Origin: Bacilli bacterium
GTDB taxonomy: Bacteria > Bacillota_I > Bacilli_A > RFN20 > CAG-826
DNA length: 64,000 nt
Assembly: GCA_035353055.1 (NCBI GenBank)
Contig: DAOPYW010000002.1
Coordinates: 4,574 to 68,573, forward strand
Reading direction: 5' to 3'
Positions 1,494 to 34,736 of the stretch are shown here, piece after piece. A program made the translations under genes and the position numbers. Under the pieces are notes generated by a model. That model did no database searches. It was not told the DNA's origin and saw nothing but the letters and a program-made list of their open reading frames with translations. The first letter of the stretch is position 1, and every line of letters starts with the position of its first letter.

Positions 1494-1687
1494 GAATGGC
1501 CTCCAGTGATTTAATGTCTCAAACGCCTGATAATGAATATTTTTTAAATATTAATTAACGGGCTACGAGTAAATTATATTAACTCATTTTTATGCAACGT
1601 GCAAAGAAGATACAATTATCAATCTTTTTAATTTTTGATATCCTCATTTTCTGAATGAATTCGCAACATATGATTTTTGATAGTGAG

Positions 1688-1718
1688 AGAAAATAAAAAA
1701 ACGAGACGAATCTCGTTT
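1688..1718 (-). terminator. Rho-independent terminator downstream of hypothetical gene 1739..2278
   Basis: Hairpin acgaga-cgaa-tctcgt followed on the minus strand by a T7AT4 run, 20 nt after the stop codon. Confidence 0.45.
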
Positions 1719-1738
1719 AATGCAAATTCTTGGTATAA

Positions 1739-2278
1739 TTACTCATTCAATAAATCTTTATATTTTTTCCATGTTGAAATATATCTATTGTCCCATTTTA
1801 CACATGTAATATTGGAGTATTTAATAAGAACAGGCTTTTCCGACCATACTCCATCAGCATCAAAATATCTGAACAATACATCTGATTTATTTACTTTAAA
1901 TACTACTCCAATAAAATATTTTTCGTTATATTCATCTTCTATCGAAATAAACTTATTAAGTTTTGCCAATTGTTTGAGTATTATTTCCCAAGATGTGATA
2001 TCAATGTTTGGATTAGCTATTTGTGCAACAACGCCAATTGTTTGATTCATTTTATTGCATAGATCATTCCTAATTTCTGCCCTTGTTAAATCTGAAATTT
2101 TTCTAACCGCGTACCCATCTAAAAGAAAATCATCTTCTTCTTGTCCTAGCATAAACTTGTTATTCACATCTAACACGTAGTAATAGAAGTAATAACAATC
2201 GTATTTAAAAAAGCATCTGCACAATTCCTTGGCGTTTTTAGACTGATCCAAAATTGAAAGTTTCTCTTCTTTTTTCAT
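1739..2278 (-). CDS. Hypothetical protein in ~25% GC islet (alternative start 2311)
   Basis: ORF of 179-190 aa in a markedly AT-rich block. No recognisable motif. Own terminator. Confidence 0.4.
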   Translation of the reverse strand: MKKEEKLSILDQSKNAKELCRCFFKYDCYYFYYYVLDVNNKFMLGQEEDDFLLDGYAVRKISDLTRAEIRNDLCNKMNQTIGVVAQIANPNIDITSWEIILKQLAKLNKFISIEDEYNEKYFIGVVFKVNKSDVLFRYFDADGVWSEKPVLIKYSNITCVKWDNRYISTWKKYKDLLNE

Positions 2279-2484
2279 TGCTCTTACCTTTGAAAATGCG
2301 ATGTGCAACATCCGTTTATTGATTCTGAAAAGTATTCAATTATTCGGAAGTATGTTTCTCTTTAATGCATTTTTATTATTATACCACAAAATCACAAAGG
2401 CTTTTTCAACATCACTACCACGAATCATACCAAATAGAATTTAATCCTAAAATATTAACATATTAAATAAAAAAATACAGCAAG

Positions 2485-2510
2485 TGGTCAGTTCTCAATG
2501 CCGAAGCATG
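2485..2510. repeat. 26-bp perfect direct repeat (left copy) abutting IS left end; tggtcagttctcaatgccgaagcatg
   Basis: Identical 26-mer seen again at 3631..3656 in the same orientation. Confidence 0.7.
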
Positions 2511-3630
2511 TGTTAACTTTCAAATGATGTGAGACTTTTTTGTCCTTGCTTTGCTCTTATCTTAATAAGTTCATCGTAAAGTGACAATTCAATTTCATTC
2601 GGAGTTAAACATTTTAGTACAAACCTTGGTGTGTCATTATATCTTCTGTTCCATGATTCTCCTTGATTTCTTAAGTCTTCTAAGTTGAAGAACCTTAAGG
2701 TTCTATAGAATTTATCTTGGTCTATTCTATGGCTTCTTTCGACTTTTCCATTATGTTCAGGGGTTCTTGGTCTTATTAGCTTATGTATGATTCCTTTTTC
2801 AATACAATATTGTTCTAGATAATTTGGGTATTTTCTTGAATGAATGGTATTTGTTCTTTTCACTTTATCGGTGAATTCCAAGCCATTATCACTCTGCAAG
2901 ATGATTGGACTATATCCAAATGATCTAATAGCCTTTTTAAGAGCGGTTACGGTTTCATACAGACTATGTTCATTCGTGTAATGTAGATATCTTTTCCTGC
3001 TGCATTCGTCCAGGATTGTATATTGGTAAAACTTATTTTCGGAATGACCACCTGTATAACATTCTTTTGGAACGAATTTGACATCAATTTGCCATTTCTC
3101 ACCTATCATTGTCGGTGTGCGATAGGGCTTATCGTGTTTCTTTTTTGCGTTACTTAAATATGGTGAATATTCTTTATTTCTTTTTAAGATTCTCAGCGTA
3201 CTTGATAACGATATAACATAGTTATTTCTATGCATCTTTATCCAAATCTCCATATATGAATTATCTGGATTTCTTCGTTTTAAGTCCAGCACCTTTTTAA
3301 TTACTTCTTCTGATAATGTTTTTGGGTGAGGTGTCTTTGGTCTATGAGAGTGATCTTTTAAAGAGCCAGAAGTGCCGTCGTAAGCTTTTAACCATCTAAA
3401 CAACGATGATTTTCTGACATGATAAAAAGAACAAACCTTACTTATTTTCCAGTGCGATTCCTTTGCTCTTTTACAAGCATGGAATCTTGTTTCAATATCT
3501 ACAGGTACAAAGTTTCTTTCTTGTGTTAAAATGTCCATGGAGTCCTCCTTAACAAGTTGTGGTTAACTTATTATAAGCAAGGACTCTTTTATTTTCTTTA
3601 ATTTAGTCTCACATCAATTGAACTAGTACA
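2511..3630 (-). mobile_element. IS481-like insertion sequence (~1120 bp) with imperfect ~28-30 bp terminal inverted repeats beginning TGT (both ends contain tgatgtgagact)
   Basis: Left end tgttaactttcaaatgatgtgagact vs reverse complement of right end tgtactagttcaattgatgtgagact. Encloses a single DDE transposase ORF. Flanked by 26-bp direct repeats. Confidence 0.65.
2513..3538 (-). CDS. DDE (rve integrase-core) transposase, IS481-like, with N-terminal HTH
   Basis: Motifs DNGLEFT and RPRTPEHNGKVERSHR resemble IS481-family (RPY.P.TNGKVER) transposases. AAGGAGGA RBS upstream. Confidence 0.8.
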   Translation of the reverse strand: MDILTQERNFVPVDIETRFHACKRAKESHWKISKVCSFYHVRKSSLFRWLKAYDGTSGSLKDHSHRPKTPHPKTLSEEVIKKVLDLKRRNPDNSYMEIWIKMHRNNYVISLSSTLRILKRNKEYSPYLSNAKKKHDKPYRTPTMIGEKWQIDVKFVPKECYTGGHSENKFYQYTILDECSRKRYLHYTNEHSLYETVTALKKAIRSFGYSPIILQSDNGLEFTDKVKRTNTIHSRKYPNYLEQYCIEKGIIHKLIRPRTPEHNGKVERSHRIDQDKFYRTLRFFNLEDLRNQGESWNRRYNDTPRFVLKCLTPNEIELSLYDELIKIRAKQGQKSLTSFES

Positions 3631-3656
3631 TGGTCAGTTCTCAATGCCGAAGCATG
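3631..3656. repeat. 26-bp perfect direct repeat (right copy) abutting IS right end
   Basis: Identical to 2485..2510. Confidence 0.7.
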
Positions 3657-3703
3657 AATATAAAAAAGGTCTGGCACATTATACCAAACCTTATCTTTTC
3701 TAA

Positions 3704-3777
3704 TGGAGCAAGTGACGGGAATCGAACCCGCATAACTAGCTTGGAAGGCTAGTGTTCTACCACTGAACTACACTTGC
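3704..3777 (-). tRNA. tRNA-Gly (anticodon UCC), CCA encoded
   Basis: Reverse complement folds as a cloverleaf. Acceptor GCAAGTG/CACTTGC, D-stem GTTC/GAAC, anticodon stem CTAGC/GCTAG with loop CTTCCAA, T-arm CGGGTTCGATTCCCG, 3' TCCA. Confidence 0.9.
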
Positions 3778-3829: not shown

Positions 3830-4138
3830 TTATTTCAAGAAGTTAAGAAGTTGATTTTGATTCATATAACCGAGAGAATGTCTGACGATTTTTCCCTCTT
3901 CAAAAAGAATCAAAGTGGGGATTGATTGGATGCCAAATTGAGCGGCGATTGCTGGCAAGCGATCGACATCAACTTTCAAAATTAAAGTGTTGGTCACCTT
4001 TCCGCTGGCATCGACTGCTTCAACCACTGGCGAGAGCATTTTGCATGGTCCACACCAGGTGGCAAAGAAATCGACAAAGACTCTTCCTTTGTTGTACAAA
4101 GCATTAAATTCCTGAACTGTTTCAACGTGTTTAATCAT
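3830..4138 (-). CDS. trxA: Thioredoxin
   Basis: WCGPCK active site, ~102 aa from internal ATG (MIKHV) preceded by GGAGGA RBS. The upstream part of the 132-aa ORF is non-coding and overlaps the neighbouring gene. Confidence 0.85.
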   Translation of the reverse strand: MIKHVETVQEFNALYNKGRVFVDFFATWCGPCKMLSPVVEAVDASGKVTNTLILKVDVDRLPAIAAQFGIQSIPTLILFEEGKIVRHSLGYMNQNQLLNFLK

Positions 4139-4146
4139 AGTTCCTC

Positions 4147-5046
4147 CTATAAGGTTAGCAAATAAAATACTAACGCGATAATGGCGAGATGGAGGGGGTA
4201 ATATAGATACGCTCCATACTCGAACCATGGCTTATTATAGCCGCGTTTCCCACTGTAACACAAAAGTAATGCTCCAGAAAAAAGCGCCAGCCACTGATAT
4301 GGCAAAAAAGGCATGTTTCCAAACCACGACAAAGCATATAAACAAAGGCTTATCACGACCACGGCTGACATGTTTAATAAGTTTGTGGCTCGCATATCAA
4401 AAGAGGAGAGCTTTAAGACTTCCACATCAACGCCCATATCTCGAGCAATGACGCTGAGATAAAAATCTTTTATAAGACGCGCCAAGTAGAAGCTCATAAT
4501 CAGCAAAACGGAAAACCATCCATACTGGGTTCTCAAATAAAAGGGGAGCCAATAAACGAGCGTGCCGGTATTATATTCAAACGTCGTTATCGCGAATGAC
4601 AAAATGGCATAGCACGCCGGGAGTAAAGCGAGCATTTTAATGCGCCAGTTTGCCTGCATGAGACAGTACACTCCGACAGCGCCGAGAAGGAGATCAATAA
4701 AGATATTGCCCCCCTGCGTAAAGTCCTGAGAGAAAAACGGATTAGGGATATAAGCTAGTAAGGCATAGACTCCACTAATGAATAACGCCATAATGCCTAA
4801 TCTCAAAGCATATTTTTTAAAACTTCTAGTGTGAGTAACGCCCTCGTAAATGATGAAGGCAAATAGGGGCATCGCCAACCTTCCTAGGCCACGCAAAAGA
4901 ATGACGACGGGAGAGCCGGGAGAAAGATAATAATATTCGAGCATAAGCCCTACATGATCTAATGTCATGAATAAAAAAGCTAATAGTTTCAAACCGAAGT
5001 TTGATAAAAAGAGCCATTTTTGAGTGCTATCTTCGTTTTTCATCAT
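4147..5046 (-). CDS. TraX-family-like polytopic membrane protein
   Basis: Multi-TM protein with N-terminal LKLLAFLFMTLDHVG motif resembling the TraX family. 4-nt overlap with the upstream CPBP gene. Confidence 0.45.
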   Translation of the reverse strand: MMKNEDSTQKWLFLSNFGLKLLAFLFMTLDHVGLMLEYYYLSPGSPVVILLRGLGRLAMPLFAFIIYEGVTHTRSFKKYALRLGIMALFISGVYALLAYIPNPFFSQDFTQGGNIFIDLLLGAVGVYCLMQANWRIKMLALLPACYAILSFAITTFEYNTGTLVYWLPFYLRTQYGWFSVLLIMSFYLARLIKDFYLSVIARDMGVDVEVLKLSSFDMRATNLLNMSAVVVISLCLYALSWFGNMPFLPYQWLALFSGALLLCYSGKRGYNKPWFEYGAYLYYPLHLAIIALVFYLLTL

Positions 5047-5867
5047 TGACTAATTATATTTGAAATCAAAATTGAGACAACAGCAACCAAATTGTTTGTT
5101 ACATGAGCAGTCAGCGAAGCGGCAAGCCCAAAATAATCGTAAGCAAAGCAGAGCAATCCACCAGCGATTAAATAGGAAGGAAGATTAAGCAGTTCGACAA
5201 GGTATGCTTCTGGGCTACCGGCTAAAAAGTCGAAATGAATCAAGGCAAAAAAAGCGATTGTAACAAGATATGCTAGCCATTTGCCTATCCGTGCAAAAAA
5301 GGAAAATAGTCCAAGGCGGTAGGTTAATTCCTCACAAATCGGTCCAACAAATGCAAATATCAAGATGGATAGGGCTGGATATGAAATAGTAATCTTTCTT
5401 ACTAGATCTTCGTTTCCGTTAACACCAAAGTCAACAAATAACGAAGCGATATACTTATAAAAAGAACCCAAGAGAAGAATACCAACCCCTATTCCAATTC
5501 CTATTGCATATGGGACAACGCTCTTAAAAGAAGCGAGAATCTTTCGATGATTCTGGAAAGCTAGAAAAATCATGCCAATAAACAACAATCCATAGGTGAC
5601 GAATTGAGACACAGCCATATACATGATCTTGGTGCTTTCACTGTTGAGAAAAGACAATGCTAATTGGATGATAATTCCGATAATATTTAATCCCAGCCAA
5701 CCTGTTAAAAAGAAAGCAATCTCTTGCCAGCGAGGCAGCCAAATTAAACCTCGTTGCTTTTTATGCGCCTCAGGATTGGGGTTTATTTCGTCGCATTTTG
5801 GACAATTAGTATTTACCGGATCATAGTTATGACCGCATTTGTTACAAATGGTGTCTCGCATTAACAT
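5043..5867 (-). CDS. CPBP (CAAX/Abi) family intramembrane metalloprotease with N-terminal C4 zinc ribbon
   Basis: CNKCGH...CPKCDE zinc ribbon. EELTYR (EExxxR) and FALIHF (FxxxH) CPBP motifs. Multiple TM helices. Confidence 0.65.
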   Translation of the reverse strand: MLMRDTICNKCGHNYDPVNTNCPKCDEINPNPEAHKKQRGLIWLPRWQEIAFFLTGWLGLNIIGIIIQLALSFLNSESTKIMYMAVSQFVTYGLLFIGMIFLAFQNHRKILASFKSVVPYAIGIGIGVGILLLGSFYKYIASLFVDFGVNGNEDLVRKITISYPALSILIFAFVGPICEELTYRLGLFSFFARIGKWLAYLVTIAFFALIHFDFLAGSPEAYLVELLNLPSYLIAGGLLCFAYDYFGLAASLTAHVTNNLVAVVSILISNIISQ

Positions 5868-5962
5868 TTTCTTTATTTCCTAATAAAAAAACTATACACT
5901 AAAATTGACTTTAAAAGTAACAATAACTATTAGTTATGAACTGATAGAGAGAAGAGGTAATA

Positions 5963-8900
5963 ATGTCTGCTGATTTGTTTGCTCAAATTGTCAATATAGG
6001 TCTCATTGTTCTTTTTGTTGCCGCTATTGTGGGTTTCCTTATCGCGGGAATTGTCGGTTATAAACGAGGCATTTGGTCATCGACATATCGAATGCTATTC
6101 ATGCTCATTCTCGTCACTGTCGGGCTTGTATCGCTGACCGCAATCGCTGATATTTTAGGCAATATAAATCTTGATTTATTCATCCCTTACGAGACTATTA
6201 TTCTCACCAATGAAAAAACGGGAATAATTTACTACGCTCCAATCACTTCTTTCCATGATACTTTAGTGTCATGCTTCCGCGGATTTTACTATCTTTACAA
6301 TGTTTCTGGAAGCTACGCAGCCGCCACAGAATTTGCCGAAGCGCTGGCTTATTCAGTTGTCAAATTAGCCGCCTTTATGGTCATCATGATTCTCATTGTC
6401 ACGCTGGGATCGCTTTTATGCACTATCCTCTGGCATGCATTATTCAAGCACCTCATTCCCAAACTTGCGCGCAATAGAATTAAAGTTCGCTGGGTAGGCG
6501 TGGCTATGAATACCATCACATATGTAGTGGTGGGCTTTCTTTTCTTCTCGCCTTTTTCCTCAATGATAAACATTATCAATCAAAACTATTCGAGAAGAGA
6601 TGACGAAAACCAAGTGGTGGCTTATCTCAATGGCTTTGTTGAAACCTACGACAATTCTCTCTTTGCTCAGACGTTTTTTAACTGGACCGTCGATCCATCC
6701 ACTGGGATGACGATTGACACTACAATTCTCAATAGCCTGACCTCTTCCTCTTTGAAAAACGGCTCAATTGGCATCATCGAGAGCGTTTCTGAACTGACAA
6801 AAATTGCCAATGTTTTAGCTGAAAACATCGTAATTGGATCTGACAACAAGATTACTTTTAGTATTCCCGAGATGGTCAGCCAGGAGTATATCGAAACCCT
6901 CTTTGCATCTTTGAAAGATTCAAACTTGGTCATGATGATCATTCCATTAGCCATCCAGATATCCCTTAATTCTGATTTGCTCGCCGATTATGTTGACACT
7001 TCCCTTCTTGATTTATCCGATGCTGAATGGGATAAAGAACTAGATGCGATCGAAACAATCGCTATTGATGTCGCTAATAGCGGTATTGTCGATTCGTTCC
7101 TCGATGATGATGGAAACTTTGTTCTGCCAACCGACAATGCGGTTTTAATCTCTAGTTTGCTCACTAAAAAAGCTTACTCTTATACCTATCATGCTTTGAC
7201 TACCATCAGCGAGTCAAAATTGCTCTCGCGTAGCATTCCTGCTTTAATTCAGTATTTAATTAACAATGGTGGGGAAACCATGAAATCTTATTTCCCCACA
7301 ACTTTCGAAGCCTTAAACGATATCGATTGGGGATTTGAACTGAGCACTGTCTATGACTGCTTATATCAAATGTACTGCGCTGACAATCGCATCGTTACCG
7401 CGATTCTCAATATGAATTCTTCCGAAACTGGAGAAGGGGGAAGCGGACTCGCTCCTCTTCGCGCTGGAGAAGAAGATTTTACATTGATGGACGTTCTCTT
7501 AGAGAACATTGACGCCTATCGCCGCATTATTGTCGGAGAAACCAATACCGCCAATGAGCTCGTTAACCTTGATTCAAATGGGCGCACGATTGTCTATTCT
7601 AACGGCAAGAGAATCCCAGGCAGGCGCTATTCCCTCTTAGATATTTCTTTGTGCAAGACTATTTTTTCCTCTTTTGCGACAACGCTGGGCGAGCTCATCA
7701 GCGATGAGACAACCGAAACCGCTGTCTCCGCTGTTATGACAGAACTTTCCGCGGGCAAATGGATGAAAAACTATAAAGAAGAATTCAATGCTCTTTTCTA
7801 CTGCTTTTCCGCTTTTAGCGAAAACCCTGGCGCCCTTGATACTCTCACTAGCGGAGAATTAATCCCCGAGGGTGGCTCACTAAGCGATATCGACCCAGGA
7901 GTGGTTCGAGTGCTCTCTTTAGCGATGAAGAGGATGGATAAATCCAAGATTATCTATGCCATCTTAACACCCACTATAAATACTTTATTAACTACGGGAA
8001 GCATCGCCGAAGCGTTCCAGCAGAGCAACATTGACATCGCAATTGTCACGGATGGGGTTCATAAAGCTGAAGCGTCGCGAACTCTCGGCATCGAATTAGC
8101 AAAAATCATCGATTCAGTGAAACATTTTGGCACTCTTTCCGATATCTTATCGGGCGGGTATGATACCGCGACAATGATCAGCCATTTAGGCTCTGCTAGC
8201 GAGTCCATCGCTTATGCGCTTGACGCCGTCTACCGCTGCCGAATCATCAACCCTGTTCCTGAGCCAACAGATACTTACACAAAGAATGAAAACTACTTCA
8301 ATGTCATGAGTTACATCTTTGGTGATTCTCTGCATGTTGAAGGGCTAGCTTTTGACCAAACTTTGCTAAATGATCCCAACATAACTTGGGTAAACTCTAC
8401 CGATAGCAGTGGCAACTTTTACCATGACCGCTATGGAAATGCCATCTATGACGGTGAAAATGGTGCGATTGCCAATGTTATCAAAGCTCTCGCTTCATCG
8501 GGAATTATGACGGTGATGACTGATGATACATATCTATCAGGAAGCAATATGACCGATCATATCGCCTCTCTTGAAAACGATTATCATCTCTCGAGAATAT
8601 TATCTGCCGTAGGCGATAGCGCCGTCTTTTCAAGCACGATGGGGACATTCCTCGACGCTCAACTCGATCAGACTGGTATCCTCGCTCAAGGAGTCTCATT
8701 CACCAATGTCACTGACTGGAAAGATGAGGGAGAAAAACTCGGAGTTTTGCTCACGACAATCGGAGAAGCCGCGATTGATATGTCCAACCTTAATTTGAAT
8801 GCTATCACAAACGTTGTCGGCCTCAATGATCTTCTCCACGCTCTCGCTGATTCTTCAATGTTCATCGATAAGACTACTGGAAACTATTTGTTCTCCGGAT

Positions 8901-11900
8901 GGCTATATGCCAAAGCGGAAAGCAGCTTGACCAATTTCTCCGATGGAGTGAATAGCTACAACTTAATTAGAGATCCGCTAGTTTGGGACAGCACGTGGGG
9001 CACTAAAGGGCCGGACGATTATACGATTGTCAAAGGCGACTTTGCCTCATTAGATGAAAAAGGCGATTGGTGCAGCGAAGGTTTTACCCCTTCCTTTGAT
9101 ACCTCAAGCTATGTGGCTCCTTATGCGAGCTACACCAATTATTGGGACAACCCTCAGTTCATCGAGGACTACTCCGCTGTTCTAGAACTCGACGAAATCG
9201 GACGCCTCAGCAAGATTGTTTACTGGGTCACCCAAGCGGTGGCGACAAATGATTTGCTGAAACTTCCGACGAGGACTTTCGATGGGCTTGTCAATTCTCT
9301 CAATGACACCACCTGCCTGAGAGTGACGCCATACAATTTCTTTGAAATTGCTAAATCAGCCTTCCCGAGCAGTTCTTCATCTTCCTTCTTCGATCTGTCA
9401 CCCGCAAATACTTCATATTTAGTTTCGTGCGACCAATACATCAATGACTACGCTGCTTCAGCTCCGCTAAGACAAGTGGAAATTGATTATTTAACTAATA
9501 TTTATGCCACCTATCGCTTCATGGTTGATAATGGCATTTTGGATAGCAATAATCAGCTTGTGACTGATAAGATTGACGTTGAAGTATCCAATAAAGTGCG
9601 CGATTCCATCCTCGGAATTCAGGAATCATTAGTTTTCCATCGCAAAGGTTCTATTTTGGATCCTAACTTAAACGATGACACTGATGGCTATTATCCGACG
9701 GTTTTCCAAAACGGATTGTCGGCTTTCTTAACCGCTGAATATATGGGCGAAATTCTCTATAACTCCGATAGTCCAAAAGACACTTTTTACTACGATGATT
9801 ATGCCGAATATCTCGATCCAGATTTGGCAGTGGTTACTGAAAGCGATATCATAAAAGCTAAAGCCGATTATCTTCTCGACAACTACTTTGATTTTAGAGG
9901 TTTGAAAAACTTTAACTATAGCCAGCAAGTCGATGAAATCAACGCCATTTTTACTGTCGTCGATGCCATTGTCGGTGGGCCTATTGAAGGAACAACGGAA
10001 AACTATCAAGGCCTGCGCAAATCAGGCGGTGCCATCACCTTCAACTTTGAAAATTTTGACATCACCAACAGCGGCAACTCCATTGCTATAAACCAAATAA
10101 TGAATACTCTTAATGAAACGAATACGCTATTTGATTGCACTTCGAATATTATTTCTCTAGCGCTTGAAAACGCTTCTCAGTACAGCATTGTCAGCAATCT
10201 AACTCATGTTAATTTCGATGACACCAACATTTTCTATCACTATTTCGATGAGGAGAATTTGTTCGGGACACAGACATATAACTGGAATATCAGACTTGGA
10301 GAAGAAGAGATTTCCTTAGTCAGCGATATCGTGAGAGAAGTTTCAAAGTACCAAAATGGCGAGCCCTCAACCTTCCCCGATTTTGATACTATCGATACTT
10401 CGCTTACTTCTGTTCAAAATCTTGAGAATTTCCTCCACACATTGCAAGAAAGCAAAATGTTCCATACTGGCGGACCTGTGCTATCCTTATCTTTCGATGG
10501 CAGCCATAATGTTGTCTTGACCAATACCTCATCAACAGGGATGACCATCTTCCAAGAAATATGCGTGCAGATGTTCTCCGATGATACGCTATCATCTTCT
10601 CTTTTCCGCGCCGCCTCGCCAAAAGACCAAGCCAATATGGCTCTGGGATTATATTCAAACGCTGAGGAAAAAGCTGAATACTTGGCCGAGACTTTGTTCA
10701 CTCACGATGGATTAGGTGCTTCAGCCCTGTCCTTGCCTGCTCAGTCGACGGAAATCGATGACATCGGCGTATTTTTAACCGCTGCTTTGAAATTCCATGC
10801 CAATGATTTCAGCTCCATGAATTTGATGGATATCGACACCGATGATGTTCGCGAGGTGCTTGTCGCTCTCAATAATTGCGAATCCCTGTACGATACCGTT
10901 CCTAATCTCATCTCGACGATGATGGACCGCGATTTCACGACTTTCGAAGGCGTCGATTTATCCGATGCTTCTTCTTACTATCATTATCAGAGTGGTGGAA
11001 CCACCAACTACAATGTGAAATATGATGTCGATGAAATCGATAACATCGCCACCCTCCTCACTGACTATCAATCATTCACCACAATAGTTGGCACCAATAA
11101 CATGGGCGATCTCGCAGTCGTGAAAGCCCTATTGGAAAACGGATACATCTATGATTTATTCGTCGACTCCTATTCAAGCCACATTCTGCACATATCCAAT
11201 GACTACTTAACTTCTACGACCCACATGACTGTTTTCGAGCAAGTCATCAATATGTTTACTACCAAATCTGGCCTCACAAACTACGCTTACCCCGTTGACG
11301 GACCGGCAAAGATGATGGCTAAAATTAAAGCCGTCACAGCTCTCGACGAAGCTTATAAAGATGATGTGACCACTTATAATTCGACAGGCTATCACGAATG
11401 CTGGCTGAGAGTGACTGGCGATGATGAGATTCATGCTCTTGTTGACTTCATATCAACCAGCCGATCAATTCTCGGCGAAACAGGCTTGATGAATGTCGCC
11501 AACTTGCAAATGGATAACATCGATCCATCAGAAACCAGAGATGTCATGACTTCCATCAATAAAGTTGATTTTCTCAACGATGTGATGCCAGTCTTTGTCT
11601 CTCAAGGCTTTGACGCGATTGGTCTAAGTTCTCTCTCATCTTATAATTCCATCAATCATTCTTATATTAATATAGGCCAATATCAATATGGCGGAGCTCG
11701 CGGAGCAACCAACATCGATTACTGCGAAATCAACAATATTTACGCCGCTTTGAGCAACATGGTTAAATATGATACCGAGAATAATTTTGATGGTTACCAC
11801 AGCCTCGGAAACATGATTCTCCTCGCTGATAATACCAGCAATTTTGATGGCATTGTTCGCTTCATCAGCCACAGCCGCATTCTGAACACTGATCAAAGCG

Positions 11901-12706
11901 GTAGCTTTGACACGATGTGGGATTTGTCGGGCTATTCCGTTGCCACCCGCGGATTATTGATTTATAACATTCTCACCGCTGGGCAATCAGATCCCAATAG
12001 CGGAGCCAATCTTGGCCAGTATGTCACTGGCAGTACTCCGGAAGAAAAAATTGCTGTTCTATCGAGAATCTTCACCTTCGCAAACTACAACGATCAGGCC
12101 GAATCGCGCGGATTATTCACGCTGGCATCCAATTCCGATCACATTGATCAAAATAACTTGGACATCGATGATTTTGATGCCATTACTAACGCTCGCAATG
12201 AAGTCACTGTCTCGATGAAAGCGGCATATGACTCCTATGGCAATGGCAGCAATGTCCGCTCTTATTTCGCTAGCGAAATTATGTCTACCTTCCTCGATAA
12301 TATCATGGAAATCCAGTATGACGTTATCGATGGCCTTGGCTATTACTATGAAGAAATACACTTTGGTCCTACAGCGCTTGCTGGAGTCAATCAAACCGCT
12401 TATGAAAACGTCAATAGTGTGGAGTGCGATGGCTTGAACGGATCGCTCAACGCGGTGCTCATTGTGAATGGAATTATCAGCACTGGCACATTGCCGACCC
12501 GCGTAGAGTTAATCGGCGCCTTCACCCTCATGGATAATAGCGCTTCCGCGAAGGTGTTCTATCTCGCCCGCATTCACGACAACCTCGGATTAGTTACCCA
12601 GTCAGCGCCTCCAGTTTGGACTGACTATACCTCAAGTATCTACGCCCCAGGATTTGACTTCGGCGTATACGGCACATCCCTAGCTGATTATTTCTCTCTC
12701 AGTTAA
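5963..12706 (+). CDS. Giant (2247 aa) membrane-anchored surface protein of unknown function; 4 N-terminal TM helices then ~2000-aa acidic N/D/S/T/Y-rich ectodomain
   Basis: Single uninterrupted ORF. Four hydrophobic segments in the first ~200 aa. Almost no Cys. No recognisable enzymatic motif or tandem repeat. Putative own promoter (TTGACT-17-TATTAG) and GAGG RBS upstream. Confidence 0.7.
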   Translation: MSADLFAQIVNIGLIVLFVAAIVGFLIAGIVGYKRGIWSSTYRMLFMLILVTVGLVSLTAIADILGNINLDLFIPYETIILTNEKTGIIYYAPITSFHDTLVSCFRGFYYLYNVSGSYAAATEFAEALAYSVVKLAAFMVIMILIVTLGSLLCTILWHALFKHLIPKLARNRIKVRWVGVAMNTITYVVVGFLFFSPFSSMINIINQNYSRRDDENQVVAYLNGFVETYDNSLFAQTFFNWTVDPSTGMTIDTTILNSLTSSSLKNGSIGIIESVSELTKIANVLAENIVIGSDNKITFSIPEMVSQEYIETLFASLKDSNLVMMIIPLAIQISLNSDLLADYVDTSLLDLSDAEWDKELDAIETIAIDVANSGIVDSFLDDDGNFVLPTDNAVLISSLLTKKAYSYTYHALTTISESKLLSRSIPALIQYLINNGGETMKSYFPTTFEALNDIDWGFELSTVYDCLYQMYCADNRIVTAILNMNSSETGEGGSGLAPLRAGEEDFTLMDVLLENIDAYRRIIVGETNTANELVNLDSNGRTIVYSNGKRIPGRRYSLLDISLCKTIFSSFATTLGELISDETTETAVSAVMTELSAGKWMKNYKEEFNALFYCFSAFSENPGALDTLTSGELIPEGGSLSDIDPGVVRVLSLAMKRMDKSKIIYAILTPTINTLLTTGSIAEAFQQSNIDIAIVTDGVHKAEASRTLGIELAKIIDSVKHFGTLSDILSGGYDTATMISHLGSASESIAYALDAVYRCRIINPVPEPTDTYTKNENYFNVMSYIFGDSLHVEGLAFDQTLLNDPNITWVNSTDSSGNFYHDRYGNAIYDGENGAIANVIKALASSGIMTVMTDDTYLSGSNMTDHIASLENDYHLSRILSAVGDSAVFSSTMGTFLDAQLDQTGILAQGVSFTNVTDWKDEGEKLGVLLTTIGEAAIDMSNLNLNAITNVVGLNDLLHALADSSMFIDKTTGNYLFSGWLYAKAESSLTNFSDGVNSYNLIRDPLVWDSTWGTKGPDDYTIVKGDFASLDEKGDWCSEGFTPSFDTSSYVAPYASYTNYWDNPQFIEDYSAVLELDEIGRLSKIVYWVTQAVATNDLLKLPTRTFDGLVNSLNDTTCLRVTPYNFFEIAKSAFPSSSSSSFFDLSPANTSYLVSCDQYINDYAASAPLRQVEIDYLTNIYATYRFMVDNGILDSNNQLVTDKIDVEVSNKVRDSILGIQESLVFHRKGSILDPNLNDDTDGYYPTVFQNGLSAFLTAEYMGEILYNSDSPKDTFYYDDYAEYLDPDLAVVTESDIIKAKADYLLDNYFDFRGLKNFNYSQQVDEINAIFTVVDAIVGGPIEGTTENYQGLRKSGGAITFNFENFDITNSGNSIAINQIMNTLNETNTLFDCTSNIISLALENASQYSIVSNLTHVNFDDTNIFYHYFDEENLFGTQTYNWNIRLGEEEISLVSDIVREVSKYQNGEPSTFPDFDTIDTSLTSVQNLENFLHTLQESKMFHTGGPVLSLSFDGSHNVVLTNTSSTGMTIFQEICVQMFSDDTLSSSLFRAASPKDQANMALGLYSNAEEKAEYLAETLFTHDGLGASALSLPAQSTEIDDIGVFLTAALKFHANDFSSMNLMDIDTDDVREVLVALNNCESLYDTVPNLISTMMDRDFTTFEGVDLSDASSYYHYQSGGTTNYNVKYDVDEIDNIATLLTDYQSFTTIVGTNNMGDLAVVKALLENGYIYDLFVDSYSSHILHISNDYLTSTTHMTVFEQVINMFTTKSGLTNYAYPVDGPAKMMAKIKAVTALDEAYKDDVTTYNSTGYHECWLRVTGDDEIHALVDFISTSRSILGETGLMNVANLQMDNIDPSETRDVMTSINKVDFLNDVMPVFVSQGFDAIGLSSLSSYNSINHSYINIGQYQYGGARGATNIDYCEINNIYAALSNMVKYDTENNFDGYHSLGNMILLADNTSNFDGIVRFISHSRILNTDQSGSFDTMWDLSGYSVATRGLLIYNILTAGQSDPNSGANLGQYVTGSTPEEKIAVLSRIFTFANYNDQAESRGLFTLASNSDHIDQNNLDIDDFDAITNARNEVTVSMKAAYDSYGNGSNVRSYFASEIMSTFLDNIMEIQYDVIDGLGYYYEEIHFGPTALAGVNQTAYENVNSVECDGLNGSLNAVLIVNGIISTGTLPTRVELIGAFTLMDNSASAKVFYLARIHDNLGLVTQSAPPVWTDYTSSIYAPGFDFGVYGTSLADYFSLS

Positions 12707-12708
12707 TT

Positions 12709-13086
12709 ATGCAAACTGTCCAAACTAGATTCGAAGATTTATCGGAAGTAAATAAATCAAAATTTGTCGCCATTATTATCCCTCTTAACAACGCTGACGA
12801 TTTTAAGAAATTGTTGGCTGACATTAAAAAAGAACACGCTAAAGCAAAGCACATTGTTTATGCCTATCGCGTGAAAGAGAAAAGCAAATCGTGCGATGAT
12901 CAAGAGCCAAAAGGCACTGCTGGGAAACCTTTGCTTGAGCTTCTCCACAAGCGAGAGATGGATCAAGTGGTGATCTTTGTAGCTCGCTACTTCGGGGGCA
13001 CTAAACTCGGAGCATCGCGCTTATTGAGAACTTATCTTCAAGCCGGCATCAACGTGCTTAATAAAGCACAATTAGTACAAATTTAG
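12709..13086 (+). CDS. IMPACT/YigZ family N-terminal domain protein (UPF0029)
   Basis: EPKGTAGKPLL motif characteristic of the IMPACT N-domain. 125 aa, C-terminal YigZ domain absent. Confidence 0.55.
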   Translation: MQTVQTRFEDLSEVNKSKFVAIIIPLNNADDFKKLLADIKKEHAKAKHIVYAYRVKEKSKSCDDQEPKGTAGKPLLELLHKREMDQVVIFVARYFGGTKLGASRLLRTYLQAGINVLNKAQLVQI

Positions 13087-13099
13087 GAGGCTATCAAAT

Positions 13100-13924
13100 A
13101 TGTCAGAATGCAATCACGATTGCGAACATTGCGCGAGCAATGATTCTTGCGAGACTAAAAGTCTCAAAGCAAAATTAAACGAACTATCGCACATCAAAAG
13201 AATAATCGGAATACTTTCCGGAAAGGGCGGAGTGGGAAAATCTTATGTCACTTCGCTATTAGCAGTAAGTTTAATTAAGCGCGGTTTTAAAGTGGGAATC
13301 CTCGACGCGGACGTCACTGGTCCGAGCATTCCCAAGGCTTTTAACATCGGCGAAAAAGCCGCCGGTGAGAATAGCTTGATTTATCCGCTCTCTTCGAGAT
13401 TAGGCATCAAGATCATCTCCGCGAATTGTCTATTAGAAGATGATTCGGATCCAATTATATGGCGAGGTCCTTTACTCGCGAATCTCGTAAAGCAATTCTA
13501 TGAAGATGTCTTGTGGGAAGAGTTAGACTATCTTCTCATCGACATGCCACCAGGAACTGGCGATGTGGCTCTGACGATTTTTCAATCGATTCCAGTCGAT
13601 GACTTAATCATCGTCACTTCGCCGCAAGATCTCGTCTCGCTCATCGTCACAAAAGCGATAAAAATGGCCGAGATGATGCACATTAATGTTTTAGGTGTCA
13701 TTGAAAACATGTCGTACCTCACTTGCCCAGATTGCGGCAAAAAGATCGAAGTCTTTGGCACTTCGCATCTCGATAGCTTTGCTAAACAACTGCACTTCAA
13801 TATTTTAGGAAGGCTCCCCCTCAACTCTCAGAACGCTTCATTGGTCGATGAAGGAAGAGTGGAGGAAATCGCCCTGCCAGAAATCGAAGAAGTGACAAAC
13901 AAAATTTTAACGAAGGAGAATTAA
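13100..13924 (+). CDS. Mrp/ApbC/NBP35 family Fe-S cluster carrier ATPase
   Basis: GKGGVGKS deviant Walker A, N-terminal CxxC-rich region, CPxC motif. AGGAGG RBS. Confidence 0.8.
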   Translation: MSECNHDCEHCASNDSCETKSLKAKLNELSHIKRIIGILSGKGGVGKSYVTSLLAVSLIKRGFKVGILDADVTGPSIPKAFNIGEKAAGENSLIYPLSSRLGIKIISANCLLEDDSDPIIWRGPLLANLVKQFYEDVLWEELDYLLIDMPPGTGDVALTIFQSIPVDDLIIVTSPQDLVSLIVTKAIKMAEMMHINVLGVIENMSYLTCPDCGKKIEVFGTSHLDSFAKQLHFNILGRLPLNSQNASLVDEGRVEEIALPEIEEVTNKILTKEN

Positions 13925-17182: not shown

Positions 17183-18358
17183 ATGAAAGTTAAAAAAATT
17201 TTATTTGTTGCAGCTAGTACTTTTCTTCTTGCAGCGTGTTTTGAAAGCGGAATGAGTGCTGGCTCTTTGCCAAAAGGCGGAACGCCTGCCACAGCCCAGA
17301 GCACAGTCCTAGCAATTGGAAATGCTTACGATTCTTTAATGGATTTAGACTCCTTCGAAGCTAATTTCGATTTAAAGAAAGCTCATGTTGACTTAAAACT
17401 AGGACAAACTTTTGAAGCACCAGCCTCGAAACAAGGAGGAATCCTTGGCAATCGCATGGTTGAAGAAGTCGATGGATTTGGCATCATTCAAGCTGATGCT
17501 TCAATGAAAGCTAAATTTGCGGTCACTGGTCTAACCAGCACTTCTGTTGACGATGTTGAAGCAGAAGCGAGCATTAGCGATCTCGGCATCGATCTCTATG
17601 TCGGAACTGAAATAGGCACTGAAGTTACACCAGAAGTCGACTTTGATTTCTCAGGTGTCGATGTTGCCGCTTACATTTCTACAGGCAATTTGTACGTCAA
17701 TGCTTCTGACAATGAACTCCGCTCCATGATTTCTGAAATTTTAGTCGCGACCGGCACTCCTGAAGAAGAAGTCGGACAAACGATGGAAAATATTCCAGAA
17801 AAATTCTATCAACCAGGTGTCATTAACGCTGATGCCCTCCCACTCCTTGATACTTTCTTCAATCAAGTTCTTGGAATTGAAACCCTGCCAACAAAAGAAG
17901 ATGTTATGACAGGTCTCGGCGAGGTTCTCAACGAATCATCATTTGCTACTTTGGCAGATTATATCACCCTGCTTGATTATGAAGACGGAAGCTTTGGCAT
18001 TTCTGTTGATTTGAGCAAAGAAGATGTCCTCTCATTATTAACTCTTGTCCTCTCTTCAAATGGTGACCAAATGACTGAAGAACAAATTCAAACAGCCGTT
18101 ACTGAATATGGCAAAATGTTTGAAATTGGCGCGCTAAAAGCAACCATTTTGCTCAATAGCGATGCTTTATTGACCGATGTATTATTTGACATTGATGTCT
18201 CAGTCGATACTTCTAAAAGCGAACTTTACACTCAAAGCGAAGAAACTCCAATTCTCCTTGATCTTGCTTATAAATCAGCATTGACCTTCAAATATGGAGA
18301 CAATGTGAGCGTCAATCTTCCTACCGATTTATCCTCATACGCCGTATTGGCAAACTAG
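17183..18358 (+). CDS. Acidic lipoprotein, unknown function
   Basis: Signal peptide with lipobox LLAAC. Highly acidic mature part. GGGGG RBS and own promoter. Confidence 0.6.
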   Translation: MKVKKILFVAASTFLLAACFESGMSAGSLPKGGTPATAQSTVLAIGNAYDSLMDLDSFEANFDLKKAHVDLKLGQTFEAPASKQGGILGNRMVEEVDGFGIIQADASMKAKFAVTGLTSTSVDDVEAEASISDLGIDLYVGTEIGTEVTPEVDFDFSGVDVAAYISTGNLYVNASDNELRSMISEILVATGTPEEEVGQTMENIPEKFYQPGVINADALPLLDTFFNQVLGIETLPTKEDVMTGLGEVLNESSFATLADYITLLDYEDGSFGISVDLSKEDVLSLLTLVLSSNGDQMTEEQIQTAVTEYGKMFEIGALKATILLNSDALLTDVLFDIDVSVDTSKSELYTQSEETPILLDLAYKSALTFKYGDNVSVNLPTDLSSYAVLAN

Positions 18359-18434: not shown

Positions 18435-20789
18435 ATGGTAATTCATTATAATAAGCACATGGCAAAACGCTTAATAATTGCTCCCTTTTCAATGCACGAG
18501 AGTCTATTGAATGCTTTTCGGCAAAAAGACTCATTTACTGATCTCAAAATAATCGATAAAAATGAATTGCTTCACTCTTTTTATGATCAGCTAGATCAAA
18601 AGAGCATCAAGGAAGTGATGATTTCTGAAAACATCTCGCATGATGCGGCGATAAAAATTGTCCGCGCTCTCCCTTTTGCAACAGCAGATGTATCTACCGA
18701 AAAAATGAGTCATTTGCACGATATTAAAGCTCAGTTAAAAACCCTTGGTTTGTTGAAAAGAAATCCATATATAACAATGCTATTTAAAGGAAAAGATGTC
18801 GAAGTTTTTGGTTACTCTTCTCTCGATAAAGAGTTGGTCGGAGTTTTAACATCTTTGAAATGCTGCATCAACTTTAACATCAATGAAGTGGTAAAAAAAG
18901 ATCAGCCGCTCCTTCAATTTTCTTCCATTCCTGAAGAAGTGCTGTTTAATCTAAATCAAATTGCCCAACTACTTGATTCAGGAGTTAAGGCTAGCGATAT
19001 CTATGTTTATTGTTGCGACCATGATTATTATTACTACCTCGATGAGTTTCAAAATAGTTTTCATTTTCGCCTCAATATTCCCCAATATCAAACTCTATAT
19101 TCTCAAAATTCCACCTGTTGGCTTCTACAAGAGATTCGCCAGCGTCAAAGCTTTGATCAGATAGGGGAAATCTTCTCGCAAATAAGCATTCCAATCGATC
19201 ATCAAAAAATGATCCAGAAAATGATAAAAGAAGTGATGGATGAACGGCTATCGTTCGCTCGGCAATATCAATATCTTGTTTATTTGCTGAAGCAAACTCA
19301 TATTTCTGATAATGTTTATAGCCCTGCAGTCAATTTTATCGAAGAGCCAATTATGGCTAATCACGCTAATGTTTTTGTGCTGGGATTTCACGAAGGCCTT
19401 TTCCCTATCTCCTACCAAGATAATGATTTCTTAACGGACCAAGAAAAGAGTCTTCTTGGGCTTAATACTTCGCTGGATAAGGGAAAGATGTCCATTCATA
19501 TGCTTACAAACTTCTTTGCTCAAGATAATGCTTATCACTTCTCTTATTCCCGCCGACATTTAAACAACCAATATTATCCTTCTCCCTTTGCTAAAATTTG
19601 GGGTATGCATATTGCCAACGCTGAATTGCCTGAGACATACTTCAGCCATCGCTATGCTGAAATGACCCTTGCAAATCTGTGCGATTTAAATAAATTTTTT
19701 AAGGAGCAGACCGAAGACTACCGGGCTCTTCTCGATATTATATCCATCCCTTACGATTCTTATGATAACCAATTCACTGGCGCCAAAGTTTTCGATGATT
19801 CCACCTCTTTAAAGCACTCATATTCAAGCATGAAAGCTTATTATGCTTGCCCATTTCAATATTATCTTGCTTATGGTCTCGACCTTGATCCTTTCAAGGG
19901 CAATTTTTCTTCCGCTCTCGGCAATATTGCCCACCAAATTTTCCAGAATATGAGCAATCAAGACTTTGATTTTGAACAAGCTTATCAAAACGCTTACGCC
20001 GGAAGCGATTATCAATTCACAGAGTCAGAAAAAACTCTTTTAATAGAATTAAAAACGGATATGAATGCTGCGGTCCAAGCAATCAAATTGCATCAATCGA
20101 AGATGTCTAGTCATCAGATCTTCGCTGAGCTAAAAATTAAAATGCCTCTTGATGATCGCACGATAATTGAAGGCATTGTTGATAAAATCATCATTGTTAG
20201 CAATCAATATATGTTTTTGGTTGACTACAAAACTGGCAAAGAAACTTTCGTGCCGGCTCTTTTAAAATATGGCAGTTCCTTTCAACTTCCTACCTATGCA
20301 TTGTTAACCAGCCAGTCGCCTCAGTTTAAGGATTACACTCTGACAGGTCTATACATCCAGCATGTCATACCAGATTCAATCTCTCGCACCATTAAAGAAG
20401 ATGATTTAATTCCATATTATCTTAAACTTGATGGCTATTCGATTGATGACGCCAGCATTATTCATATGTTCGATGACACTTTTGGAGTGCCTGGCGAAGA
20501 ATCATCTTTCATCAAAGGTATAAAACTGACAAAAGATAATCAATTTAGTAAAAGAAGTCGCATTCAATCACAAGAGTATCTCCACTCCTTAAGCAAAAGT
20601 GCTCTCGATCTTTTCGTTGAAGGGAACAAAAGCATTCGCCGGAATATTTTTCCTGTTCGCCCACTTTTTGCCGATAGTGATGGAGCGTGTAAATATTGCC
20701 CATACCACGATATCTGCTATGTGAAGTTTGAGCAGATAGTCGATGTAAAGGATATCCAAGAGCAGGAGGCAGAAGACAATGGCATTTAA
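18435..20789 (+). CDS. rexB: ATP-dependent helicase/nuclease subunit B, RexB/AddB type (no Walker A)
   Basis: C-terminal PD-(D/E)xK region (LVDYKTGK) and Fe-S Cys cluster CKYCPYHDIC. No GxGKT motif at the N-terminus. Overlaps addA start. Confidence 0.75.
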   Translation: MVIHYNKHMAKRLIIAPFSMHESLLNAFRQKDSFTDLKIIDKNELLHSFYDQLDQKSIKEVMISENISHDAAIKIVRALPFATADVSTEKMSHLHDIKAQLKTLGLLKRNPYITMLFKGKDVEVFGYSSLDKELVGVLTSLKCCINFNINEVVKKDQPLLQFSSIPEEVLFNLNQIAQLLDSGVKASDIYVYCCDHDYYYYLDEFQNSFHFRLNIPQYQTLYSQNSTCWLLQEIRQRQSFDQIGEIFSQISIPIDHQKMIQKMIKEVMDERLSFARQYQYLVYLLKQTHISDNVYSPAVNFIEEPIMANHANVFVLGFHEGLFPISYQDNDFLTDQEKSLLGLNTSLDKGKMSIHMLTNFFAQDNAYHFSYSRRHLNNQYYPSPFAKIWGMHIANAELPETYFSHRYAEMTLANLCDLNKFFKEQTEDYRALLDIISIPYDSYDNQFTGAKVFDDSTSLKHSYSSMKAYYACPFQYYLAYGLDLDPFKGNFSSALGNIAHQIFQNMSNQDFDFEQAYQNAYAGSDYQFTESEKTLLIELKTDMNAAVQAIKLHQSKMSSHQIFAELKIKMPLDDRTIIEGIVDKIIIVSNQYMFLVDYKTGKETFVPALLKYGSSFQLPTYALLTSQSPQFKDYTLTGLYIQHVIPDSISRTIKEDDLIPYYLKLDGYSIDDASIIHMFDDTFGVPGEESSFIKGIKLTKDNQFSKRSRIQSQEYLHSLSKSALDLFVEGNKSIRRNIFPVRPLFADSDGACKYCPYHDICYVKFEQIVDVKDIQEQEAEDNGI

Positions 20790-34328: not shown

Positions 34329-34736
34329 ATGGCAAGTTTTTTTCTGGATATTTATACTCCTTTTGGGCACTATTTAAAAACCAATGCCTCATTTTTGGAA
34401 GTTCAATCAGAAGATTACTTGCTTGGAATTTTGCCTGAGCACGCGCCATTAGTATCATCGCTAGTGATTTCGAAGATGGTGATTGAGATAAATGCTACTC
34501 GCTATATCTATGCGATTGGCGGAGGTATTATCAGCATCGACAAAGATGGTGTAACCCTTTTGCTCGATTCAATTGAACGAAGCGATGAGATTAATTTGCA
34601 ACGAGCACTTGACGCAAAAATGAGAGCGGAACAAAGGTTAAGTGATAGCTCGGATAAAACCATTGATAAAAAGCGAGCTGAATTAGCTTTAGCCCGCGCT
34701 ATTAATCGCATCCATCTTATTCAGACAGATAAATAG
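34329..34736 (+). CDS. atpC: F1 ATP synthase subunit epsilon
   Basis: 135 aa. Operon position and epsilon-like N-terminal beta-sandwich sequence. Confidence 0.8.
   Translation: MASFFLDIYTPFGHYLKTNASFLEVQSEDYLLGILPEHAPLVSSLVISKMVIEINATRYIYAIGGGIISIDKDGVTLLLDSIERSDEINLQRALDAKMRAEQRLSDSSDKTIDKKRAELALARAINRIHLIQTDK

Follow-up and report, generated by a model that had tools for sequence, protein, structure and literature searches.

What kind of protein does the giant gene of this locus encode, and on which side of the membrane does it act? The window, i.e. the whole 64-kb stretch of DNA that was analysed, carries the gene on its forward strand, and it tops the ORFs listed there, as the original prediction had stated. 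The gene and the parts of its product are as follows.

5963..12706, + strand: giant gene, 2,247 aa plus stop codon, ATG start (ORF list and translation)
5963..6607, + strand: four-helix membrane anchor, aa 1-215 (hydropathy, AF2 secondary structure, loop charges)
6647..6694, + strand: juxtamembrane signature YDNSLFAQTFFNWTVD, aa 229-244, the family's most conserved motif
6641..9565, + strand: degenerate or partial repeat copies (iterated repeat HMM, hhalign tile comparisons)
9581..10393, + strand: repeat unit A, aa 1207-1477 (profile methods; motifs SLVFH, TVFQ, SPKD, LFDCTSN, FYHY)
10406..11122, + strand: repeat unit B, aa 1482-1720 (motifs SKMFH, TIFQ, SPKD, LYDTVPN, YYHY)
11135..11815, + strand: repeat unit C, aa 1725-1951 (unit A HMM E 3.2e-6; hhalign 98.8% vs unit B)
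11816..12703, + strand: C-terminal domain, aa 1952-2247, non-repeated, helical, conserved and without membrane anchor

The composition of the giant protein agreed with the earlier description of an acidic, N/D/S/T/Y-rich and nearly Cys-free product, with a pI of 4.23, S, T, D, N and Y contents of 9.7, 8.1, 7.9, 7.3 and 5.3%, respectively, and 16 Cys among the 2247 residues (0.7%). The ectodomain was fairly hydrophobic (GRAVY about -0.3 to +0.2). Profile searches of the whole protein against Pfam and NCBIfam gave no match at E<=0.1, in line with a family that could not be recognised from the letters. Neither an LPXTG-like motif ([LIVN]PX[TSA][GNDA]) anywhere in the protein nor a C-terminal hydrophobic anchor was found, confirming the predicted lack of a sortase signal and ruling out a sortase-anchored (LPXTG) protein. 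A bacterial lipoprotein was ruled out as well, since the first 60 residues carry no lipobox; Cys first occurs at position 104.

An identical giant protein was found on two contigs from two samples, and collinear, full-length orthologues were present in 42 species-level genomes (GTDB species); the ORF is therefore not an assembly chimera, and the gene is real. Since these orthologues are intact with synteny kept and the structure prediction was of high confidence, the chance that the ORF is a mis-assembled or decaying artefact appears negligible. The 42 genomes were recovered using the YDNSLFAQTFFNWTVD signature as a search pattern, in which Y229, S232 and W241 are invariant and A235, F239 and N240 are near-invariant. 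Every carrier recovered had one conserved giant-gene locus per genome, and the carriers came from rumen, gut and digester communities. Searching with a profile of the full family alignment contributed no more than one partial protein and two distant giants (P0045 and P0046, see below). The giant protein is a member of a large, unannotated family in uncultured small-genome Bacilli, which bears out the suggestion that its family may be undescribed. The family sequences diverge rapidly, and the number of repeat units differs between species and thus sets the length of the protein.

Hydropathy gave four hydrophobic helices within aa 8-205, as originally proposed (TM1 to TM4, residues ~8-32, 44-66, 135-160 and 178-205), and no hydrophobic segment past residue ~342. 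TM2 and TM3 are separated by an ecto-loop of 68 aa (67-134), in which AF2 secondary structure placed a beta-hairpin. Loop charges across 203 family members (net +6.7 for loop 3) strongly predict an N-out/C-out topology with the large domain outside.

The likeness of this anchor to CvpA/Colicin_V (PF02674) lies in its size (~200 aa), its four TM helices, the R-G motif that follows TM1 and the outside position of both termini; four TM helices with outside termini were indeed obtained for the giant anchor by hydropathy and loop-charge statistics. We take the membrane part of MarP to belong to PF02674. In MarP, such a four-TM anchor carries an outside, periplasmic C-terminal domain (PMC4992679). 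The giant anchor differs from CvpA in its long TM2-TM3 ecto-loop, and Colicin_V matched neither the giant protein nor five of the seven anchors tested, even at E<=10. The best score in the superfamily, that of the P0045 anchor (28.2 bits, E 2e-6), lay below the gathering threshold of PF02674 (29.3 bits) and covered model positions 2-55, i.e. TM1-TM2 only. When the N-terminal profile of 203 sequences was compared with E. coli K-12 CvpA (L048) by hhalign, the probability was 2% over 28 columns. CvpA membership was rejected on account of this value and of a Pfam match that was sub-threshold and confined to a distant relative. P0045 and P0046 themselves are uncharacterised metagenomic giants whose four-helix anchor and first ecto-module are homologous to those of the giant protein; the family anchor aligned with P0045 at 97.6% (hhalign, E 4e-12), and the family HMM matched it over residues 14-405 (E 7e-23). 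Like the giant family, they are long (2.4-2.5 kaa) and have helical-looking tandem repeats, whereas their repeats, of ~93 aa each, hardly differ from one another, and their genes have Lgt upstream and no CPBP or TraX.

The earlier statement that the ectodomain has no tandem repeats held for pairwise self-BLAST, which found none, and failed for profile methods, which revealed three full units and degenerate copies from residue ~230 onwards. Unit B was found by an HMM made from unit A columns alone (E 2.4e-30; hhalign 99.7%). The iterated repeat HMM placed the degenerate copies at aa 227-355, 341-496, 563-742, 802-917, 911-972 and 1044-1201, and hhalign paired the tiles 339-436 with 1304-1404 (95.6%) and 316-473 with 557-725 (93.9%). 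In the family alignment, unit B was missing in ~60% of the members (occupancy 0.40), and the C-terminal domain showed an occupancy of 0.90-0.98, with AF2 pLDDT mostly ~90. A word-indexed search for the repeat-unit profile yielded just two fragments, and the units scanned singly against Pfam gave scattered noise only.

The giant protein was predicted to be almost entirely alpha-helical. In Foldseek comparisons covering the PDB and viral (BFVD) libraries, its modules matched helical bundles in the PDB at the score level of generic helical bundles, and no transporter or lipid-binding fold was matched among PDB structures. Recognised S-layer domains (SLH, CWB2) or a known S-layer fold were not matched. 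The proposed S-layer-like coat or adhesin was thus not upheld by domain match, as no recognised S-layer or adhesin domain was present in what is instead an almost all alpha-helical chain. A phage-derived large protein (tape measure, polyvalent) was ruled out by the best BFVD match (E 0.079, probability 0.05) and by the housekeeping neighbours. The idea of a polymorphic surface factor, in the sense of a polymorphic toxin, was discarded because the C-terminal ~300 aa and the downstream gene, always YigZ/IMPACT-N, are both conserved family-wide; no toxin domain was found.

Ebh of S. aureus and Embp of S. epidermidis are, like the giant protein, large surface proteins of Bacilli whose bulk consists of tandem alpha-helical repeats, although the surface location of the giant protein is a predicted one. 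The Ebh/Embp repeats, acidic and of low identity, are alpha-helical bundles that form an elongated rod held by a transmembrane segment without LPXTG, and Embp repeats bind fibronectin (PMC7587433). By analogy, the giant chain appears most like Ebh/Embp in design, perhaps including the rod shape, while being unrelated in sequence. The FIVAR, GA-module and DUF1542 domains of Ebh/Embp were not found in the giant protein (Pfam E<=0.1; noise for single units), and its unit fold differs from that of Ebh. Ebh/Embp have a YSIRK-type N-terminal export signal and a C-terminal TM, whereas the giant protein has the four-helix N-terminal module and a bare C-terminus. The talin rod, vinculin and alpha-catenin are helical-bundle chains of cytoplasmic eukaryotic mechanical scaffolds without sequence similarity to the giant protein, and their likeness to it is an analogy only.

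The surroundings of the giant gene consist of the following features.

3830..4138, - strand: thioredoxin gene, closing the divergent operon in most lineages and lost from L049 and L051
4147..5046, - strand: TraX-family polytopic membrane protein, encoded in the same direction as CPBP (PF05857 E 5e-24; adjacency conserved)
5043..5867, - strand: CPBP/Rce1-like intramembrane protease with N-terminal zinc ribbon (PF02517 E 5e-13)
5868..5962, no strand: divergent intergenic region, 95 nt, with putative back-to-back promoter-like elements
5905..5910 and 5928..5933: candidate promoter for the giant gene, TTGACT and TATTAG spaced by 17 nt
5925..5935: palindrome AACTAnTAGTT in the intergenic region
5953..5957: putative ribosome-binding site AGAGG upstream of the giant gene
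12709..13086, + strand: YigZ/IMPACT-N gene, beginning 2 nt past the giant stop, conserved downstream partner
13100..13924, + strand: Mrp/ApbC-type P-loop ATPase gene, which usually follows in this co-oriented run

These Pfam matches agree with the divergent TraX-like/CPBP pair described originally. The CPBP catalytic motifs are intact here (EELTYR, FALIH, HVTNN), and EExxxR, FxxxH and HxxxN were present in 44 of 44 orthologues. The CPBP gene adjoins the giant gene divergently in essentially all loci, distant ones included, and the comparison of orthologues and synteny showed that the core TraX<-CPBP / GIANT->YigZ->Mrp is kept across the family; it stays where the flanks have changed, as in L049 and L051. 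Since collinearity extends to the wider region in many lineages, the CPBP/TraX adjacency may be an inherited order; collinearity as its sole cause was favoured at first, and then weakened rather than excluded by the changed flanks of L049 and L051. Other genes near the giant locus are DegV, GlpK and GpsA (lipid or glycerol metabolism).

The left half of the intergenic region can be read, on the minus strand, as a putative -10 box, UTR and RBS serving the CPBP operon, and is conserved even in lineages with 28-33% identity. In six species, the intergenic region is ~91% identical, with giant proteins that are 47-73% identical. A generic promoter scan was at chance level (18 sites vs 15.7 ± 3.7 expected).

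Taken together, these observations lead us to lean, tentatively, towards an undescribed giant surface family of small-genome Bacilli, in which a four-helix-anchored chain of helical modules would serve as a structural coat or spacer. The four-helix N-terminal module is strongly predicted to be embedded in the cytoplasmic membrane, both of its ends facing outward, with TM4 as the export anchor for the ~2,040-residue acidic, Cys-poor domain. This domain consists of homologous alpha-helical modules (three full ones of ~230-270 aa and about six degenerate ones) followed by the unique C-terminal domain. The chain may form a rod or fibril, elongated and fairly rigid, that projects from the membrane in an Ebh/Embp-like design, and the rod may act as a coat or spacer, which may or may not also attach to surfaces or partner cells. 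The organisms bearing it would lack sortase anchoring, and their wall would be reduced or absent. The candidate orders are predicted to be a mix of walled and peptidoglycan-deficient families (Field et al., PMC10868615). Cell-wall genes were not seen among the annotated genes of the 64-kb window, whose content cannot decide wall status. The CPBP protease and the TraX-like protein might, speculatively, process or modify the giant protein. It seems quite unlikely that the protein goes as far as to be the main exoskeletal element of a wall-reduced or wall-less clade, with a membrane-rooted forest of helical-bundle rods of repeat-tuned length replacing the peptidoglycan/sortase architecture and a dedicated, co-regulated CPBP/TraX pair, encoded divergently, maturing the protein.

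The conserved neighbours also suit a shed or matured exoprotein, whose anchor would be cleaved or modified by the CPBP protease and the TraX modifier and whose ectodomain would be released or re-anchored; were this true, the conserved cluster would be a dedicated maturation system. The persistence of the core despite changed outer flanks, its family-wide presence, the CPBP motifs and the unusually conserved shared control region all point in this direction. CPBP-family proteins of S. aureus affect YSIRK surface-protein display and envelope integrity, and LnsB participates in N-terminal lipoprotein acylation (PMC7387801). Nevertheless, the related P0045 has the same type of anchor without a CPBP or TraX neighbour, the adjacency may be inherited as noted above, no cleavage motif was identified, and CPBP proteins are numerous with many roles, so that we regard this reading as rather unlikely. 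Much the same standing is given to a specific adhesin that would act like Embp on ligands of hosts, plant fibres or partner cells instead of forming a structural coat. The predicted exposure, the rapid divergence and repeat-number variation, the provenance of the carriers and the fibronectin binding of Embp would fit such a role, whereas the single locus per genome and the conserved C-terminal domain look housekeeping rather than accessory, and Pfam found no known binding domain in the whole protein or its units.

Mycoplasma surface proteins are known for lipid uptake, and the anchor could provide a CvpA-like route for solutes or lipids, for which the ectodomain captures or channels substrates such as lipids. 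We consider such a transport role improbable: the homologous P0045 anchor touches Colicin_V, lipid/glycerol genes lie nearby and the ectodomain is fairly hydrophobic, but the Colicin_V match is partial and below the gathering score, the family profile hardly resembles E. coli CvpA, and the PDB yielded no transporter or lipid-binding fold. The function of CvpA is itself, to our knowledge, not settled. If the topology were inverted, the helical chain would be a cytoskeleton-like scaffold inside the cell, as are its nearest fold analogues (talin, vinculin, alpha-catenin, FAT). The positive-inside rule across the 203 members strongly favours the opposite orientation, and the very acidic, Cys-poor, N/S/T-rich makeup is typical of exported Firmicute proteins, making a cytoplasmic scaffold highly improbable.

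Bacilli orders with reduced genomes abound in gut, rumen and digesters without having been cultured, and all that is known of their envelopes comes from gene-loss inventories. A family model built from the giant-protein alignments would annotate several hundred "hypothetical" giant ORFs, and the four-helix N-terminal anchor is hereby defined as a module common to at least two giant-protein families. As modelled, the protein would add to the earlier example of Ebh/Embp an independent, sequence-unrelated case of a surface rod built as a string of helical bundles. Being ~250 kDa, encoded by a single gene per genome in a fixed position, predicted outside and unannotated, the giant protein is a prime candidate for what the surfaces of the carriers consist of and for the face that they turn to phages, hosts and neighbours.

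The largest among the ORFs listed in the window was an uninterrupted plus-strand frame at 5963-12706, starting with ATG and comprising 2,247 codons and a stop. Hydropathy analysis located four hydrophobic helices (TM1-TM4) within the first ca. 207 residues of its product and no convincing hydrophobic helix beyond them. This giant protein has a pI of 4.23, is abundant in S, T, D, N, and Y, and contains 16 Cys residues (0.7%); scanning for an LPXTG-like motif, a lipobox, and a C-terminal hydrophobic anchor detected none. No match at E ≤ 0.1 came from Pfam or NCBIfam, and a phmmer search of PDB sequences was also empty. The gene lies divergently from a pair encoding a CPBP/Rce1-like and a TraX-like protein, after which thioredoxin follows. 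Since the checks on the ORF, helices, composition, motifs, and neighbours agreed, the original prediction was correct in its descriptive core, including the lack of a sortase signal; its view that the family is unrecognisable was likewise upheld.

The same protein, identical, was encoded by two contigs from two different sequencing runs, and when one genome per GTDB species was scanned with a degenerate pattern, 42 loci turned up, each in a different assembly. These results ruled out an assembly artefact, including the chimera against which the original prediction had cautioned. The 42 assemblies were all MAGs of uncultured organisms, sampled from rumen, gut, digesters, and sediments, and bore the labels Bacilli, Erysipelotrichaceae, or Mollicutes. 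A word-indexed protein search yielded 43 clusters, 2.0-3.0 kaa in length and devoid of precomputed Pfam domains; the small number named by a source were called "hypothetical protein". In an exhaustive HMMER search of 1.84 billion cluster representatives with a profile of residues 1-470, the number of proteins found was 567 at a cut-off of E ≤ 1e-3, falling to 332 at ≤ 1e-10 and to 207 at ≤ 1e-30. The best 150 matches were nearly all 1.5-3.0 kaa, and the sole names given in ten sampled clusters were "hypothetical protein [Bacilli bacterium]". Five distant members checked for Pfam domains had none, and no cultured organism was among the family carriers found. The giant protein (ca. 250 kDa) thus represents a real, conserved, and undescribed family with a single locus per recovered genome.

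Net charges averaged over 203 superfamily members came to −0.9 in the N-terminal tail, +2.5 in loop 1, −2.8 in loop 2 (66 residues), and +6.7 in loop 3. Based on the positive-inside rule, loops 1 and 3 were assigned to the cytoplasm, and the N-terminal tail, loop 2, and everything beyond TM4 to the outside. All 193 long members had an acidic ectodomain (pI 4.05-4.64) that was poor in Cys (median 0.55%). A four-helix N-terminal anchor and extracellular exposure are therefore strongly predicted, and MarP-type proteins provide a precedent for a periplasmic C-terminal domain borne by four N-terminal TM helices (PMC4992679). The anchor was shared (hhalign 97.6%, E 4e-12, 185 columns) with an unannotated second giant family, P0045/P0046, of 2.4-2.5 kaa, which carries near-identical tandem repeats of ca. 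93 aa (WKNTY...GEIS.LL...ILKS). One of its genes is located as follows.

Locus L045, 10001-17515: P0045 gene, beside lgt and not CPBP/TraX

The P0045 anchor was the sole anchor that nearly reached the Pfam Colicin_V (CvpA) threshold (28.2 against 29.3 bits, covering TM1-TM2 only); the match was absent in the giant protein and most family members. A 203-sequence anchor profile gave only 2% probability against genuine E. coli CvpA. Membership in CvpA was thus rejected, and "CvpA-like" is taken here as topological resemblance.

The absence of tandem repeats claimed by the original prediction held for self-BLASTP alone, which showed no off-diagonal match and probably explains why none were noticed. 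Five short motifs, [ES]xx[VM]FH, T[VI]F[QE], SPKD, L[FY]Dxx[PS]N, and [FY]YHY, recurred in fixed order with a spacing of about 275 residues. When 220-aa tiles of the family alignment were compared profile to profile, residues 1231-1410 matched 1522-1662 (99.7% probability, E 2e-26) and 1523-1704 matched 1751-1935 (98.8%), and weaker yet significant echoes extended back to residues 316-473. An HMM built from the columns of the first full unit alone detected the second (E 2.4e-30) and the third (3.2e-6). After iteration, the repeat HMM placed these three full units at 1207-1477, 1482-1720, and 1725-1951 and, between residues 227 and 1201, six copies that are partial or degenerate. A conserved, non-repeated C-terminal domain (1952-2247) completes the protein. 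Family members had two to six full units, the count tracking protein length, and the region of the second unit was occupied in just ca. 40% of the sequences.

The protein was modelled by AlphaFold2 in two halves, with 42 aligned sequences for each, giving a mean pLDDT of 81.9 and pTM of 0.59 for residues 1-1100, and 88.3 and 0.64 for residues 1101-2247. Both models were nearly all alpha-helical apart from a few short beta-hairpins, and each unit comprised roughly eight to ten helices. Foldseek of the models against viral models found nothing, nor did profiles of the repeat unit and the anchor region against PDB sequences and Pfam. The models thus point to a chain of helical-bundle modules as the best description of the fold, for which no homologue could be recognised.

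A generic promoter scan, at chance level, gave no support to the claim that the giant gene has its own promoter; the conserved 95-nt intergenic region (5868-5962), however, contains the promoter-like TTGACT-17 nt-TATTAG. This divergent region was ca. 91% identical in six species whose giant proteins were 47-73% identical, and was conserved better than the genes flanking it. Over the giant gene's putative −10 lies an operator-like palindrome, AACTAnTAGTT (5925-5935), whose arms are conserved and whose centre varies. The left half of the region persisted to lineages with 28-33% giant-protein identity; in minus-strand orientation it can be read as a −10 box, a UTR, and an AGGA site of the CPBP operon. 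Since only 2 nt separate the giant gene stop from the yigZ start, the giant gene heads a co-oriented run.

The divergent gene order Trx<-TraX<-CPBP, GIANT->YigZ->(Mrp)->PepP->GlpK was found at essentially all loci, even at 21-25% giant-protein identity. The giant gene was the fastest evolving of the block; at locus L006, identity was 28% for the giant protein, 34% for CPBP, 42% for TraX, and 56-69% for PepP, YigZ, GlpK, and Mrp. Since collinearity reaches further (AddAB-like, DUF5677) in a 1.63-Mb contig, the adjacency of CPBP/TraX could simply be inherited order. In more distant members, however, the outer flanks were replaced while the TraX<-CPBP/GIANT->YigZ->Mrp core stayed: at L049, the upstream flank carries an ABC transporter and the downstream flank GlnA/GuaA, and L051 is missing Trx, PepP, and GlpK. 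The P0045-type gene has no CPBP or TraX neighbour. All three catalytic motifs of CPBP were kept in 44 of 44 orthologues, and S. aureus CPBP-family proteins affect surface-protein display and envelope integrity, one of them, LnsB, having a role in N-terminal lipoprotein acylation (PMC7387801). Based on the conserved core, the intact motifs, and these roles, it is possible that the CPBP/TraX pair processes or modifies the giant protein.

Several other features of the region were observed. The CPBP protease (5043-5867) carries a cytoplasmic zinc-ribbon (CNKCGH...CPKC) N-terminal to its membrane domain. Thioredoxin (3830-4228) is a mechanical ORF of 132 aa overlapping the traX end, and starts later on sister contigs (102 aa, about 3830-4138); a minus-strand tRNA gene (3707-3777) lies just past it, adjoining the boundary of a 2.09-kb segment (1614-3703). 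The sister contig L044 has 97 bp in place of this segment, which contains the following.

1739-2311, minus strand: 190-aa ORF
2513-3538, minus strand: IS481-family transposase

Identity to L044 was 96.5% to the left of the segment and 99.87% to the right, which, with its absence there, suggests that the insertion is recent and that a strain-level recombination boundary lies here. An AddAB-like nuclease/helicase pair and then a DUF5677 gene (18435-24949) are collinear with the giant-gene block in two distant relatives (L046 and L047). Mid-sized ORFs at 17183-18358, 48314-50082, and 34717-35547 (391, 163, 425, and 276 aa) lacked Pfam matches at E ≤ 1e-5; of these, the 391-aa ORF was 53-54% conserved in the closest relatives.

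No cell-wall synthesis genes were present among the annotated (housekeeping) genes of the window. At 51118-52757, a PP2C phosphatase precedes a PrkC-type Ser/Thr kinase of only 294 aa, a bare kinase domain without a transmembrane or PASTA extension, as would be expected of a lineage no longer sensing muropeptides. It is plausible that the carrier lineage is wall-less.

Among known proteins, the closest in kind are Ebh/Embp of staphylococci. The repeats of these giant surface proteins, 125-170 aa long and made up of two three-helix bundles each, form a rigid rod estimated at about 320 nm for Ebh; a YSIRK signal directs export, and C-terminal DUF1542 modules together with a TM segment hold the proteins (PMC7587433). 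Fibronectin is a ligand of Embp, and osmoresistance has been linked to a region of Ebh (PMC7587433). The giant protein shares with them a Bacilli lineage and a giant, acidic surface design of tandem helical bundles, and is likewise membrane-held rather than sortase-anchored. In contrast, it has no FIVAR, GA, or DUF1542 domains, and signal type, anchor position, and unit fold all differ. It departs from Ebh/Embp in all of these testable features and is an analogue rather than a member. We infer that the giant protein forms an elongated surface rod, serving as a coat, spacer, or adhesive element, which may be matured by the neighbouring CPBP/TraX pair.
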